Source of the DNA: a virus
Lineage: Duplodnaviria > Caudoviricetes
IMG/VR virus record: IMGVR_UViG_3300028886_000055
Coordinates: 64,001-128,000 of that record
Direction: 5' to 3' (one strand)
DNA length: 64,000 nucleotides
Below the pieces are notes generated by a model, which was given only the letters and a program-made list of their open reading frames with translations, had not been told where the DNA came from and did not search any database. Below, piece after piece: positions 30,069-48,800 of this stretch (position 1 is its first letter; each line of letters opens with the position of its first letter). The position numbers were made by a program, and so were the translations under genes.

Positions 30069-30078
30069 ATAAAATTAG

Positions 30079-30152
30079 TCGGGGATCTCGGACTCGAACC
30101 GAGACCTTGGGTTTTAGAGACCCTTGCGCTAACCTAATTACGCTAATCCCCA
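30079..30152 (-). tRNA. amber suppressor tRNA(CUA), probably Gln-charged
   Basis: TGGGGAT acceptor, loop CT-CTA-AA, TTCGAGT T-loop; weak U1 pair typical of tRNA-Gln. Confidence 0.92.
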
Positions 30153-35731: not shown

Positions 35732-35793
35732 TCTTTAATGCAGCCATTCTTTGGAATGAGAGTCACAAGCCTCTATAAATTGCAGAGTGGAGA
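35732..35793 (+). ncRNA. twister ribozyme (type P1)
   Basis: TTTAATGCAGCC[hairpin]GAGAGTCACAAGCCTCT...TGCAGAGTGGAGA matches the twister consensus. Confidence 0.8.
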
Positions 35794-39997: not shown

Positions 39998-40071
39998 AGG
40001 GAAGGAGCCAGTAAGGATGGGCACTAGTTTTGGGAACTAGATGAAAGCAGGAGCGTTACCTGTCTTCCCTA
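39998..40071 (+). tRNA. atypical tRNA-Pro(UGG)
   Basis: AGGGAAG/CTTCCCT acceptor, CTAGT-TTTGGGA-ACTAG anticodon arm, T-loop AGCGTTA. Confidence 0.75.
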
Positions 40072-40109
40072 CTTAGATAAATACAAAAACAAATATAAAT
40101 GATTACATT

Positions 40110-40886
40110 ATGGATTACACTTAGGTTATAGGAAATACAAATGAATTAAAATGTATGATTGCATTTATGGAATTAGGATACGATTGTTCAATTCCATATG
40201 GAAACTGTTCAAAATACGATTTTATTGTAGATTTAGGGGATAAATTTATTAAAATACAATGTAAAAGCTCTCATTATGTAAGAAAACACGGAAGTCAAAA
40301 AGAAGATGCTTTTACTTTTTCCACTGTTTGTAGTACGCTTAATACGAAAGAAAAAATTACGTATAAATATAATAATAATCAAATAGATTATTTTGCTACT
40401 AGTTTTAATAAACAAGTTTATGTTATTCCGTTTAAAGAATGTGAAGGATTAACATCTAAAACATTAAGACTAGCTCCTCCAGCAAATGGAAATTCAAATT
40501 GTTCTTATGCGGAAGAATATCTTATAGAAAAACAATTCCCTGAATATCAACCATATATAGAGTCTAAAGAAAAATATTTGAGCCGAAACATAAAACCATC
40601 TATAGGAATATCTAATCCAGATTTATTTAAATGCTCTGAATGTGGAGCTGAAACAACTGTTAAAAACGGTTTATGTATAAATTGTGCTAGAGAAAAATCT
40701 AGAAAAGCAGAAAGGCCAGATAGAGAAACTTTAAAAAGTTTAATTAGAACAACACCATTTACTACCATAGGAAAAAATTATAATGTTACAGATAATACTA
40801 TACGTAAATGGTGTAAAGCATATAATCTCCCTCATAAAAGTTCTGAAATAAAGAATATTTCAGATGTTGATTGGGAATTAATATAA
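40110..40886 (+). CDS. PD-(D/E)XK homing-type endonuclease with Zn-finger/HTH (TAG at codon 5)
   Basis: MDYT(Q)VIGNTNELKC...KYDFIVD...KIQCKS; C-terminal IGKNYNVTDNTIRKWCK. Confidence 0.85.
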
Positions 40887-42741: not shown

Positions 42742-42842
42742 CTAATTTAAAGTTCACGTGAATTTTTAACGTGCTTGGTTTATCATAAGATTGGTTCGAC
42801 TCCTTAGTGTAACGGTAGCACGATGATAAATCAAACATAAAA

Positions 42843-43000
42843 CGGAAAATAGTGTAACGGTAGCACTCCCCTTTAGGTAGGGTACTTCGGGAATAATAGC
42901 GCGGAATACCGAAGACGATATATAAATGTTTCAATTCAATAATTGCGCAGTTATAGAAATATTTATATATTGAGTGAAGGTTCGAATCCTTCTTTTCCGA
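42843..43000 (+). ncRNA. tRNA-Pro-like RNA with a structured insertion of about 90 nt
   Basis: CGGAAAA/TTTTCCG-A acceptor, intact D and T arms, two inserted hairpins. Confidence 0.65.
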
Positions 43001-43117: not shown

Positions 43118-43768
43118 GATCTCGTAGCTCAGTTGGTTTTTAGAGCACCACACTTTGATTTAAGAGTGCTATGGCGAGAAATCCCATAGTAGAATCACCT
43201 AAATTCGGTGGAAACCCTTTTTATACTGATAATATAAATTCATTTGTATATAAAATTTATGTTAAAATAAATATAAAACTTTTGAATATAAATAGCGTCT
43301 TGGCTATATCCAAGCAATAATATCAGTAACACTAACCAATAATGTGTAAGGACAATACCGAGCGAAAATAATGAATCAGATAATATATTGAATATTCTGT
43401 GGGAAGGAATTGTTCCATACCTGACATTATTCATTATAATCGTGTAGAGACTGAACGGGTGATACCGTAAATTAGTAAAGAGATTATATGTGTAGAACGG
43501 TGCTGGTGAAATGGGTACCTTTAAGGCTTGTCCTTTGAAGCATATAATTTGGAGCAGTTCACCCTCCACTAATACGGTACTTAGACAGTCCAGACCACAA
43601 CAAATGAGATAGTATAGAGCTGGCACGGCTGTTCGGCTGATATAAACCGAATAATAAATGTGCAAAAAGTTGATTTGTTTCAAACTATCGGTGATGTTTC
43701 ATTTGGCTATGGTAACATAGAGTGGTAGGTTAATGTGGGAGTCCTGGGTTCGAATCCCAGCGGGATCA
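43118..43768 (+). tRNA. tRNA-Lys(UUU) split by a group I intron (exons 43118-43155, 43730-43768)
   Basis: joined exons give CCACA-CTT|TTAA-TGTGG and a GATCTCG/CGGGATC acceptor. Confidence 0.88.
43156..43729 (+). mobile_element. group I intron, no intact ORF
   Basis: P1 CACUU/GAGUG with U.G; AAATTCGGTGGAAACC, CAATACCGAGC, GTAGAGACTGAACG, ACAGTCC core; terminal G. Confidence 0.88.
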
Positions 43769-44642: not shown

Positions 44643-45656
44643 AGAGGATATTTTTATTCTAAAGATTTTCATTAACTAAATTTAACAATTTTGACTTGGA
44701 AGACTCGAAATTTTTCTTTATATTTGTGTATATAAATAATACATAATATGAGTAAGGAAAAATATACAAACGAAGAATTTATTCAAGCCGTTGCTAAAAA
44801 TAAATCTTATGCAGGAGTAATGAAACAATTAGGTTTAAAACCTGCTGGAGGAAATTATGCAACTGTAAAGAAAAAGATCCAAGAGTTAAATTTAGATACA
44901 TCACATTTTACAGGTAAAGGTTGGAATACTGGTTTAAAGTTTAAACCAAAAGTCGCAAAGCCTTTGTCTGAAATAATGGTGGAAAATAGTAATTATCAGT
45001 CTTATAAACTTTCTCAAAGATTAATAAAAGAGGGTTTAAAAGAGCATAAATGTGAGAATTGTGGGAGAACTGAATGGGAAGGATTTCCTATTGCATTAGA
45101 ACTGCATCATATAAATGGTGTACATACTGATAATAGATTTGAAAACCTACAAATGTTATGCCCTAATTGTCACGCTATGACTGATAATTATAGAGGTAAA
45201 AATATCAAATTGAGTGCACAGAAAGAAATTTCTGATGTAGAACCTTGTAAATTCAAGGAAACCTTAACAGATAATGCTGATGGCAATCTTGAGCCAAGCC
45301 AAAATGTTATTTTGGAAGGTGCAGAGACTAGACACAAGGAACCTAAACCTAAAAAGAAAAAGATTTTAGAGCCAAAATATTGTGCGTATTGTGGTATTGA
45401 ACTAATAGGAAGTGCTAGAAAAAACAAATATTGTTCATCAGAATGTGCACATAAAGCTAATGGAAGTAAAAGACCTGACGTTTTTACATTGTTAAATGAT
45501 TTCAAAGAATTAAAATCGTTCGTACAAGTTGGTAAAAAATATGGTGTAACTGACAATTCTGTTAGAAAATGGTGTAAACTCTATGGAATTTTAGACAGGG
45601 TTAAGGAATAGTCCAGCCTACAAACTTAAAAAGGTAGTGAAAACTATAGTAGGAAG
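44643..45656 (+). mobile_element. group I intron carrying an HNH endonuclease
   Basis: AAATTCAAGGAAACC, GGCAATCTTGAGCCAA, GGTGCAGAGACT, ATAGTCC resemble the trnL(UAA) intron core; terminal G. Confidence 0.9.
44748..45611 (+). CDS. intron-encoded HNH endonuclease with C-terminal Zn-finger/HTH
   Basis: CENC...LELHHINGVHTDNRFENLQMLCPNCH; own TATATTTG promoter at about 44719. Confidence 0.9.
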   Translation: MSKEKYTNEEFIQAVAKNKSYAGVMKQLGLKPAGGNYATVKKKIQELNLDTSHFTGKGWNTGLKFKPKVAKPLSEIMVENSNYQSYKLSQRLIKEGLKEHKCENCGRTEWEGFPIALELHHINGVHTDNRFENLQMLCPNCHAMTDNYRGKNIKLSAQKEISDVEPCKFKETLTDNADGNLEPSQNVILEGAETRHKEPKPKKKKILEPKYCAYCGIELIGSARKNKYCSSECAHKANGSKRPDVFTLLNDFKELKSFVQVGKKYGVTDNSVRKWCKLYGILDRVKE

Positions 45657-46024
45657 AAAATCTACCGGTCTGAAAAGGCCTTGCTGGTTCGAGTCCAGTA
45701 TCGAGCACTAATTAAACAAAAAATATAACACTGAGGTGGACTTCAAACGCAAAACCTATTAAACTAGGCGTATGTGCGAAGTATTAGAGTTGGGAAGGAT
45801 CGCTACCTTGGTAAGTGTTGTATTTTATAATCCTTTTCAGCGTTTACGGTGTAACAGAGCGCTACGCTTGGTCTATAAGTACCTTGAACTTACAAAAACC
45901 GTTAACTGTCGTATTAGGTAGAGGAAGCCTAATATTCATAATTATTAGAGGTGGCTAATATAACCTTTTGCTCATATTGTTTGCTCAGTATCCACCTATA
46001 CTGAGCTTTTTAAAATTAAGGATT

Positions 46025-46444
46025 ATGACATCTGAGGAATTATTTGAGAAAGTGTCAGAACTTATAGATAAGACTTTTAAATATAAACCTATCAGTGAAA
46101 AAGAAGCTGTTGGTAAAACAATAGAGAAAATCTATACACTTTATAATGGCTGGAGTGATAATTACAAAGTAATCACTTTTACTGATAAAACTGCTTTATA
46201 TTATGAATGTGATAAAGATCCAGAAAGACATCCTAAGTTAATAACATCATATGGTGACATAGAAAGCGGCATTAATGTTTATTTAAGTAGCCTTGGAAGT
46301 TCACTTTATGATGAAGGTCTTTTAAATGATACTACTGAACTTTTAAAAGCTGAAGAGCAATATAGATTAACATTTCTTGAAGAAAATAGACAAGAACAAA
46401 TTAGAAAACTTAAAGAAATATTAAAGCAATTAGAAAATAATTGA
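46025..46444 (+). CDS. hypothetical protein
   Basis: ORF track; likely start MTSEEL. Confidence 0.7.
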   Translation: MTSEELFEKVSELIDKTFKYKPISEKEAVGKTIEKIYTLYNGWSDNYKVITFTDKTALYYECDKDPERHPKLITSYGDIESGINVYLSSLGSSLYDEGLLNDTTELLKAEEQYRLTFLEENRQEQIRKLKEILKQLENN

Positions 46445-46447
46445 ATT

Positions 46448-46831
46448 ATGGAATCATTACTTAAATATCCTGCAGTTAAAGACTTTGAAGGTAAAGTCTT
46501 AGATAGAATTATCTTTCGAAAAATGCGTATTGCGCAATTAACAATCCTCATATTTAAGGATAATACAGCTTGTTATATTATTGGACAAACAATTGCCAGT
46601 GATCCTATAATTGTAAACACTATACATTATGATGATGGAGATGTTGATGTGATTTATACAGACTTAGGTTGTGAACTTTCAGACTTAGGTTTACTAAATA
46701 TATCCGAAGTTGAAAAAGAAACATTAAGACTTAAAAAAGAAGCTCTTGCTGAAAAAGCATCAATAATTGCCCAAATAAAAGAACTTGAAAAGAAAATAAA
46801 TGAACTAAAGAGTAATTATAACATTGTTTAA
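46448..46831 (+). CDS. hypothetical protein, probable paralog of the preceding gene
   Basis: shared GK.IEKI/GKVLDRI, FTDKTA/FKDNTA, LG..L.D.GLLN. Confidence 0.7.
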   Translation: MESLLKYPAVKDFEGKVLDRIIFRKMRIAQLTILIFKDNTACYIIGQTIASDPIIVNTIHYDDGDVDVIYTDLGCELSDLGLLNISEVEKETLRLKKEALAEKASIIAQIKELEKKINELKSNYNIV

Positions 46832-46884
46832 TTACTTTATAGGCTGCCTCGGTAGCATAATGGATAATGCAACGGGGTAATGTT

Positions 46885-46968
46885 GGAGGGATAGCGCGTA
46901 ATTGGAAGCGCCTCAGTCTTCTAAACTGATGCCAGTTGGCCTTGTGGGTTCGAGTCCCACTCCCTTCA
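46885..46968 (+). tRNA. tRNA-Arg(UCU) with long variable arm
   Basis: TCAGT-CTTCTAA-ACTGA arm, GGA(A20) D-loop, GCCA/TGGC variable stem. Confidence 0.85.
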
Positions 46969-46990
46969 CTAATAACTAAATAAAATTATT

Positions 46991-47590
46991 ATGGAAAGTA
47001 AATGGTTTAATGAAAAAGAAAATCTAGAATAGATGATTCTAGTAGATAAATTATCTTATGAAGAAATAGGAAGAAGATATAATTGTTCTGGAAGTAACAT
47101 TAAGAAAGTTGCATCTAGAATTGGTATAGAATTACCAAAAAGAAGAAAAATAAACGGTTCTGAACACTTTAATAAAGGAACTGGAAAACTTAATGTCTGT
47201 CTTAATTGTGGTAAAGAATTTAAATCGTATTCTGGATTAAGTGGAAAATATTGTTGTTCAGAATGTGAAAAAGAATATAAACATAAACAAAAATATCAGC
47301 TCATATTAGATGGTGACCCTTCAATAATGAGAGCTAATTATTCTCCTAAAATTTTCAGACAAGACATAATTAATGAACAAAATGGAGTATGTGCAATATG
47401 TGGTATGAAACCAGAATGGAATGGTAAACCTTTAGTTTTCATTATTGATCACATTGATGGTCATGCTTCAAATAACAAACGAGACAACCTTAGATGTATT
47501 TGTCCAAATTGTGATTCGCAGTTAGATACTTATAAATCCAAAAATAAAAACGGAGAACGTAGTTATTATAGGTATCATAAAGAAGAATAA
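46991..47590 (+). CDS. HNH endonuclease with N-terminal HTH/Zn-finger (TAG at codon 14)
   Basis: MESKWFNEKENLE(Q)MIL...; IDHIDGHASNNKRDNLRCICPNC. Confidence 0.88.
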
Positions 47591-47732
47591 GCAATCGGTC
47601 GTGCGTGCAAGTCGTACCTGGGGTACTAAAATTGATATGAGTTAACCTTATAGGTTACACTCCCTTCACTAATGATTAATTCTTTTAATTATTTTATTTA
47701 AGATATAAATACTAATTTAAAAATAATGCATT

Positions 47733-48800
47733 ATGAAAATTAAAAACAATACTAAAAATTTAATTCCACGTCATTAGACTGGTGGATTAGTTAGAAAATA
47801 TCAACTTGCTGCTGGTTCACGAGGTATTGAACGATATAAACCGACATTCACTGATCGAATTGTTTTAATGTCACGTAATACACCACAAAATAGAGCTGTT
47901 AATAGAGCAATATTTGCAGCTAAGGATAATACAGGACTTCCGATTAGTACATGGCCTAAATACTCATCGATTACGAACAAAACGATGTCTACATGGCCGG
48001 ATGGTGAAACAACAATGTATATTAATAATAATAAAGATAGTATAGGTCTTGATGGTACTATATATAATAATAGTGGAAAGGTTATAGGTAATGATGGTAT
48101 TATTACAACTGCTTCTAAACCAGCTCAAAACAAAGGAACTCAAGGTAAACCTGCAGGAACTAAAGGTAACAGTTCTAAAGGTGGTACTAGAGGTAGTAAA
48201 GGTAATGTAAGAACTACTGCTAAACCTGCTGCAACAACCACTACCACAACACCTACTGTAACACCAGCATCCACAGAAAACACAGGTAATTATACTATTC
48301 AACGTGGTGATACACTTGGAGCATTAGCAAAACGATTTGGAATGTCAGTAGATGAACTCGCTAGATTAAACAATATTAGTAATCCTAATCGTATTTATGC
48401 TGGTCGAACTTTAATTACTAAAGCTCCTACTGTTGAAACTCCCGACATTAAAATTGAAACTCCTAGTGTTCCTAATTATGGATATGGAGTTACAGATAGT
48501 AATCTAAAACTAGGAACAAACTAGCAATACTATCCTTCATATAACTAGGATGAATTATTAAGATCTGCATTTTCTAAATTTGGATTGAACTTTGATGATT
48601 ATAAACAATTAACTGCTGATAAATTACCAACAAATGTAGCGCCTGTTAGTCAGGAAGTTAAGACTTTTAATCCAGGTAATACTGTTTAGACTCCATCTTA
48701 TAAAGCTTTAAGAGATGCACGCTTAGAAGATGAAGCATTAAAAAGAAGTAAATTATTATCTTTTGCAAAACAAGGAACTAAATTAATTAGAAAAAAATGA
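47733..48800 (+). CDS. LysM-domain protein (recoded)
   Basis: YTIQRGDTLGALAKRFG...NNISNPNRIYAG; N-terminal LIPRH(Q)TGG. Confidence 0.8.

Follow-up and report, generated by a model that had tools for sequence, protein, structure and literature searches.

A phage HNH endonuclease gene nested with a whole tRNA-Arg(UCU) inside a split tRNA-Arg gene: a probable homing module that replaces its target instead of splicing

RESULTS

Anatomy of the locus

The window analyzed here is a 64,000-nt stretch of DNA, bases 64001-128000 of the 139,730-nt IMG/VR record IMGVR_UViG_3300028886_000055, which comes from an uncultured gut-type phage and has an estimated completeness of 78%. TAG must be read as a sense codon for long open reading frames (ORFs) to appear in the window, and ARAGORN finds a tRNA with anticodon CUA at 30078-30152. 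tRNA genes and tRNA fragments share the stretch from 34 to 48 kb with at least three endonuclease genes, including a PD-(D/E)XK gene (40017-40886) and an HNH gene (44748-45629) that is distinct from the one studied here. Annotated phage genes that match the region are limited to HNH genes from uncultured crAss-like phages, and a scan for promoters and terminators returned nothing beyond the chance level.

The locus of interest occupies 46833-47673. A preliminary description had placed the 5′ and 3′ halves of a tRNA gene around a complete tRNA-Arg(UCU) and an HNH gene, and we found all of these elements at those positions, on the plus strand. The split gene, which we call X, begins directly after a leader motif, ACTTTATAGGCT (46834-46845, plus strand), that also precedes tRNA-Arg in three related loci (L093, L001, and L117; related loci are numbered with an L throughout) and falls inside a stretch common to the window and L093. 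The 5′ part of X (46846-46875) reads GCCTCGG, TA, the D arm GCAT/AATGGATA/ATGC, A, and ACGG, that is, an acceptor strand, a D arm, and the first 4 nt of an anticodon stem. A junction filler, GGTAATGTT (46876-46884), separates it from Arg*, a complete 84-nt tRNA-Arg(UCU) gene (46885-46968) recognized by both ARAGORN and the Rfam tRNA model; L093 has a homologous filler, GTAAGTGTT, at the equivalent junction. The HNH homing-endonuclease gene follows at 46991-47590 and encodes 199 amino acids with TAG read as Q. Its TAA stop codon (47588-47590) doubles as U36-A37-A38 of X, whose 3′ part (47588-47625) runs from these nucleotides through the discriminator A in the order TAA, GCAAT, CGGTC, the T arm GTGCG/TGCAAGT/CGTAC, CTGGGGT, and A. 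This part holds the 3′ strand of the anticodon stem with one change and a variable loop of 5 nt, and it is followed by a CTAA trailer like that of other tRNAs of the region. The two acceptor strands of X pair at 7/7 positions, three of them as G.U. The insert measures 712 nt, of which only 9 + 22 nt belong to neither the tRNA nor the ORF.

Downstream of X, the leader motif occurs again (ACCTTATAGGTT plus A; 47645-47657, plus strand), this time outside the stretch shared with L093, and 47658-47673 (plus strand) repeats exactly the final 11 nt of Arg* and its trailer CTAAT. The 16-nt repeat that had been pointed out earlier, CACTCCCTTCACTAAT, is indeed exact at 46958 and 47658, against a chance expectation of about 0.005 for such repeats in 6.2 kb. 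We infer that 47645-47673 is a leader followed by what is left of a second Arg*-type gene, from which nt 1 to about 69 would have been lost. The arrangement resembles a deletion centered on the anticodon loop. A single homing event does not account for the remnant, which points to a further event, possibly an imprecisely repaired break in a second copy. No single-step history that we tried to reconstruct gave both the nested genes and the remnant.

The HNH endonuclease

The enzyme consists of an N-terminal HTH-like region, a Cys4 finger, and a C-terminal HNH motif. Alignment with homologues shows no variation at C134, C137, H154, N162, N166, C171, or C174, and the active-site motif is intact. 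In Pfam, HNH_3 and Endonuclease_7 both match below cut-off (HNH_3 with 22.3 bits versus the required 24.8). Homologues number more than 2000, the best of them 99% identical across all 199 residues; the closest are P0001 (99% identity) and P0002 (98%). The ORF has one in-frame TAG, at codon 14 (47030-47032), which we read as Q, the residue that several homologues have there. The TAG is directly followed by ATG (47030-47035), and without a suppressor tRNA only a 185-amino-acid form starting at 47033 would be possible. In a TAG-recoded phage, the codon-14 TAG may serve as a timing switch.

The whole tRNA-Arg(UCU)

Arg* scores 49.6 bits (E value of 6e-9) with the Rfam tRNA model, and ARAGORN folds it into a cloverleaf with a 7-nt anticodon loop and the anticodon UCU at 46920-46922. 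Its variable region of 14 nt forms a small extra arm, its D loop contains GGAA (A20), and it has a G2.U71 pair and a discriminator A. Work on E. coli ArgRS has established A20, C35, and U36 as arginine identity elements. Arg* has all three, but its extra arm and G1-G2-A3 resemble class II tRNAs, so that its charging with arginine is putative and another synthetase may charge it.

Adjoining relatives of the HNH gene are 28 distinct tRNA-Arg(UCU) genes of 82-89 nt, Arg* among them (L005-L158). In a 10-member alignment of this long-arm family, 20/23 pairs are maintained through double changes, those of the extra arm included, and compensatory changes occur in every helix. The family has A73, and G2.U71 is conserved in one of its subfamilies. 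At least four different tRNA bodies bear the extra arm, and one of them (L062) is in other respects a standard Arg body. No description of a long-arm tRNA-Arg(UCU) family was found in the literature searched.

Complementation of X by Arg* is plausible, since no UCU tRNA other than Arg* was detected in the 139.7-kb record and AGA accounts for 52% of the Arg codons in long ORFs.

Identity of the split gene

The resident gene had been taken for an Arg tRNA, and this is borne out by uninterrupted genes of the GCCTCGG type, which we sought in IMG/VR. All 21 genes that match the acceptor, D-arm, and GCAAC pattern of X are uninterrupted tRNA-Arg genes of 75-77 nt with the anticodon UCU (21/21); they come from other phages, not from close relatives of the window phage, and there is no HNH gene near any of them. 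L162 and L181, for example, have uninterrupted tRNA-Arg(UCU) genes of the GCCTCGG type. The best matches of the 5′ part of X are Arg tRNAs, with 26/30 positions identical to the tRNA-Arg(CCU) of L124; against an Arg(UCU) profile, nhmmer aligns positions 2-30 weakly, with 9.6 bits and an E value of 0.25. The 3′ part is identical at 31/38 positions to the 3′ part of the tRNA-Arg(UCU) of L130 and at 30/38 to a tRNA-Arg(UCU) exon of L120. Judged by these matches, X was a tRNA-Arg(UCU) gene and is now a two-piece pseudogene.

Related loci and mobility

We collected 160 related loci, 80 from IMG/VR and 80 from metagenomes, which partly overlap and yield 96 distinct enzymes of at least 150 amino acids. 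A whole tRNA-Arg(UCU) lies no more than 450 nt from the HNH gene for 60 of the 96 enzymes. Most of the others are encoded between tRNA halves, and five of the 96 have no tRNA piece at all. A tRNA and an HNH gene with halves wholly absent make up 19/96 loci. Very often, the end of the HNH ORF abuts TAA and a standard tRNA-Arg 3′ half.

The genes are arranged in four layouts. The HNH gene may lie between two exon-like halves, some with a group I core and others with a compact insert described below; a whole tRNA and the HNH gene may stand together, often with an orphan 3′ half after them; or a 5′ half may be followed by the HNH gene and a whole tRNA. In the fourth layout, that of the window, matching halves enclose both the HNH gene and a whole tRNA-Arg(UCU). 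We looked for this arrangement elsewhere, as the preliminary description had proposed, and found it in seven other sequence-distinct split genes, in tRNA-HNH or HNH-tRNA order (by script in L019/L138, L050, L076-78, L110, L130/L132, and L137; by eye in L002/L082). The 3′ boundary falls exactly at U36 in most of these nested genes, not in all. Group I introns of tRNA-Arg(UCU) house the same HNH family in L133, L140, L143, and L153.

The layouts are interleaved in an enzyme tree (FastTree, midpoint rooted, supports not inspected). Among the fetched loci, the nearest relatives of the HNH enzyme (77-79% identity) are encoded beside five different tRNA types or layouts, and the enzyme therefore also moves without a fixed tRNA partner. 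Some relatives are accompanied by tRNA-like genes that have the anticodon loop CTTCTAA and are not called by ARAGORN (L041:2340-2430; L051, just 3′ of the HNH gene; L065/L071, upstream of it). These carry a D-loop-like motif, GTAATTGGA, 3′ of the anticodon arm, at the position of the variable arm.

Island-like sharing is clearest between the window and L093. When L093 was compared by tblastx with 14 kb of the window, similarity was confined to 46833-47594, and in all the two have only 46833-47600 in common. This stretch comprises the leader, an identical acceptor strand GCCTCGG, the filler, the HNH gene (72% at the nucleotide level) with the first bases past its stop codon, and the long-arm tRNA, which is 87% identical over 92 nt; the ORFs that flank the module are unrelated. 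Between L019 and L132, a block of 818 bp is 93% identical. It extends from the D arm of the 5′ half across the tRNA and HNH genes and stops at the end of the 3′ piece; the outer split genes of the two loci differ, with acceptor strands GCATCCG versus GGTGGGG and unrelated upstream flanks. In L116, the outer gene of L019 is uninterrupted and has the same upstream flank as in L019. The outer halves of L019 and the 3′ piece that adjoins its HNH gene derive from different genes. A search of IMG/VR for relatives by way of the neighboring genes (a 127-amino-acid ORF on the left and a 355-amino-acid LysM ORF on the right) and the exact 5′ half found none, and a metagenome scan gave HNH identities no closer than 79%.

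These comparisons support mobility of the module. The locus has the hallmarks of a free-standing homing element, with no intron, an intact nuclease motif, and an island-like distribution. With a probability that we put at roughly 0.7, 46833-47625 is a mobile HNH homing module that sits inside X and brings a working tRNA-Arg instead of splicing.

We consider it unlikely that the locus is debris, that is, an ordinary free-standing HNH gene beside the phage's own tRNA-Arg(UCU), with X wrecked by repeated imprecise repair of breaks. Arg* would then not be cargo, and the nesting would have no role in spread. Such a history fits a tRNA region full of tRNA fragments and other endonuclease genes, as well as the differing tRNAs and layouts linked to the nearest HNH relatives and the many loci that are merely a tRNA plus an HNH gene. 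It also fits the foreign 3′ piece in L019 and the remnant at 47645-47673, which shows that more than one rearrangement took place here. However, L093 has the same junctions in an unrelated context, from the leader, the GCCTCGG half, and the filler through the long-arm tRNA and the HNH gene to TAA and RCAATCG. Also against debris are the 93% identical tRNA-HNH unit in two different split genes and the nesting in seven further split genes with a U36 boundary that is precise in most.

Compact inserts and other RNA elements

At the same tRNA-Arg(UCU) site, relatives carry a compact insert that is not of the group I kind (reference, L120:2243-2430). It is also present around the HNH match in L003, L004, L006, L008, L013, L048, L086, L092, L099, L100, L104, L108, and L126. 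An H-type pseudoknot follows the sequence CTTC-WYAC-RG, and both of its stems covary among seven sequence families, as judged by eye. At the end of the insert, a 7-bp acceptor-like stem is stacked on a T arm, and the exon C|TAA comes immediately after. It either holds an HNH gene or, at about 105 nt, is without an ORF (L120/L121). All of the exon halves still pair, and the insert has no Rfam match. The same pseudoknot occurs in three exon contexts (L048/L091, L092, and L104). The compact insert may represent a novel type of tRNA intron, or it may be a signal for processing of the HNH mRNA.

Genes for joining RNA were sought in five genomes, those of the window phage and of L004, L006, L008, and L013. 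RtcB is absent from all five. No T4 Rnl1-type ligase was found in them, and the same search was equally empty in control genomes. An ORF of about 400 amino acids with a PF09414 RNA-ligase domain is present in 5/5; in the window phage it lies at G000:C1:1222-1782, outside the window.

Other RNA-like elements lie elsewhere in the window. A type-P1 twister ribozyme match at 35732-35793 scores 59.7 bits (curated cut-off, 67.2; E value of 2e-11). A group-I-like RNA (GCTATGGCGAGAAATCCCATAG ... GGCTATGG.AACATAGAGTGG) splits a tRNA at 43118-43768 and is not reported by the Rfam group I model; the same RNA occurs in the outer tRNA-Arg of L019 (3150-3690) and of L145 (1829-2393). At 42770-42830, TATCATAAG is followed by GGTTCGACTCC; together they resemble the 3′ end of an HNH ORF (..YHK) and the T-arm minihelix of the compact insert. 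This stretch adjoins a 158-nt tRNA-like RNA at 42843-43000 and may be the relic of another such element.

State of the split gene

The preliminary description had noted the absence of a group I core, and Rfam indeed reports no ribozyme in 45500-48500 at E values of up to 10. With permissive thresholds, applied to the window and ten related loci, no group I, HDV-like, twister, or other ribozyme was detected at the inserts. The insert in X lacks a group I catalytic core and has no room for one outside the ORF and the tRNA. Its 3′ boundary lies exactly before U36, in the anticodon loop, and its 5′ boundary has receded into the anticodon stem, so that the 5′ strand of this stem is truncated; the 3′ strand does not pair with what is left. 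We joined the halves at 910 junctions (26 × 35), and ARAGORN called no tRNA at its default threshold (100%) or at 95% or 90%. X as a spliceable gene is rejected, as none of the tested junctions yields a tRNA. The insert in X is thus supported as something other than an intron.

The halves had also been called decaying. This is true only in part, as the anticodon arm alone is destroyed; the G.U pairs and the odd T loop do not count as signs of decay, because relatives have the same features in whole genes and intact exons. G1.U72 and U4.G69 are present in the intact-looking exons of L008 and L048, and the T loop TGCAAGT resembles the TGCAATT of whole tRNA-Arg(UCU) genes in L019/L130.

For X still to work, the 712-nt insert would have to be removed by an unrecognized ribozyme or by tRNA-processing enzymes, which would act on the embedded tRNA, and an RNA ligase would have to join the halves. 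In favor of this, the acceptor stem and T arm of X can still pair, relatives have real introns at the same site, both of group I and of the compact pseudoknot/minihelix type, and the phage encodes the PF09414 protein. Against this, the anticodon stem is broken as described, no junction yields a tRNA at thresholds of 90% or above, and there is no ribozyme match and no match to the compact-type pseudoknot and minihelix near 46846, which makes a working X very improbable. That the halves resemble a tRNA by chance is hardly credible. They are not recognized as a tRNA when joined, and nhmmer scores the 5′ part weakly; yet 26/30 positions of the 5′ part agree with L124 and 30-31/38 positions of the 3′ part with Arg(UCU) 3′ halves, the acceptor strands pair throughout, the CTAA trailer is in place, and L093 has the same acceptor strand in its homologous half.

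DISCUSSION

We propose that enzymes of this HNH family are specialized for phage tRNA-Arg(UCU) genes, and there for the anticodon loop. In our reading of the locus as a homing module, the enzyme would cut the uninterrupted tRNA-Arg(UCU) allele of a co-infecting phage near the anticodon loop, and the break would be repaired from the module-bearing genome, copying the module. The tRNA-derived flanks, with D-arm and T-arm sequences common to all alleles, would provide the homology. The HNH gene and Arg* would be copied in together, and the target would be left as two halves. Where the 5′ half of the incoming tRNA is too different from the target to pair with it, the left join would be illegitimate and would produce a 5′ half with filler, the arrangement found in the window. 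The recipient would keep the function, since a whole tRNA-Arg(UCU) is part of what is copied; here, the long-arm Arg* would supply what was lost from X. The family probably began in group I introns at the same site and repeatedly swapped splicing for a linked spare tRNA.

A more elaborate version of this proposal, which we offer only tentatively, is that the module acts as a naturally occurring drive, part homing element and part cleave-and-rescue element. The halves would be homology arms that let the module invade any tRNA-Arg(UCU) allele, and the embedded tRNA would be a rescue copy immune to the nuclease. Immunity would be conferred by the extra arm, which adds about one helical turn between the anticodon loop and the T arm. 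Such a drive would account for how common long-arm tRNA-Arg(UCU) genes are beside the HNH family. Arg* is putatively immune to its HNH neighbor; immunity is not evident from the sequence, since at least one long-arm 3′ half is orphaned behind an HNH gene (L128). Split or orphan 3′ halves mostly have variable loops of 4-5 nt. A comparison of anticodon arms between split and whole alleles found no consistent difference. A long extra arm as the marker of immune alleles is not supported, given the orphan half in L128 and several cassette tRNAs of normal length. Phage tRNAs are usually helpful rather than essential.

To our knowledge, homing endonucleases are thought to persist in needed genes only by means of self-splicing introns or inteins, and otherwise to lie between genes. 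The locus described here suggests a third route, which is to occupy the gene and bring a replacement. If confirmed, this would account for the tRNA fragments that litter phage tRNA arrays, and it would be a means by which phage tRNA genes spread and diversify, the unusual long-arm tRNA-Arg among them. It would also be a natural counterpart of engineered cleave-and-rescue drives, and the HNH family would be a source of nucleases for a defined site in a tRNA gene.

Several known systems are similar in part. In Aeromonas phage Aeh1, nrdA is reported (Friedrich et al. 2007) to be split by the free-standing endonuclease gene mobE and to retain its function, with the two protein pieces reassembling. 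There, as here, a homing endonuclease gene lies in a needed gene without an intron or intein; the difference is that in our case a separate whole gene would substitute for the split one.

Genes for HNH and other endonucleases are found in group I introns of the anticodon loops of bacterial and phage tRNAs (review PMC3984707). The insertion site is the same here, and members of the HNH family studied here occupy group I introns of tRNA-Arg(UCU) in L133, L140, L143, and L153. However, the window has no ribozyme core, the exons cannot be rejoined, and a second gene would restore the function.

The synthetic Cleave-and-Rescue (ClvR) selfish elements (PMC6442612) likewise link a nuclease that disrupts a needed gene tightly to a copy that keeps the function. 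ClvR is engineered, based on Cas9, and placed at an unlinked site, and it does not copy itself into the target. The phage module, in contrast, lies in its target and probably spreads by homing, and the resistance of its rescue copy is putative.

The logic proposed here is that of free-standing homing with co-conversion of flanking markers (PMC2330249; reviews PMC2988022 and PMC3984707), applied from inside the target gene. SegB of T4, a free-standing homing endonuclease of the GIY-YIG type encoded in the tRNA region of the phage, recognizes a motif in the tRNA T arm and carries neighboring tRNA genes along (PMC2330249); SegF/SegG and mobE are further examples of such homing (PMC2790892, PMC2988022). 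As with SegB, the endonuclease gene here lies outside introns, among phage tRNA genes; its product would cut a tRNA gene in a phage that lacks the endonuclease, and break repair would copy the gene in together with flanking tRNA genes. Unlike SegB, the nuclease belongs to the HNH family, and the module lies inside its target gene with both halves left in place. Also unlike SegB-type elements, it brings a whole isoacceptor with the same anticodon, and its 3′ boundary is precise in most lineages, with the stop codon coinciding with U36-A37-A38 of the target. The preliminary description had proposed intron-free homing as a candidate for an undescribed system. Homing of this kind is already known from free-standing endonucleases such as SegB, and it is the nested spare tRNA that appears undescribed: in the literature on homing endonucleases of tRNA genes and crAss-like phages, intronless homing, and cleave-and-rescue, we found no description of a nuclease and spare-tRNA module nested in a split tRNA gene. 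The module appears to be a variant of known free-standing homing, distinguished by the nested spare tRNA.
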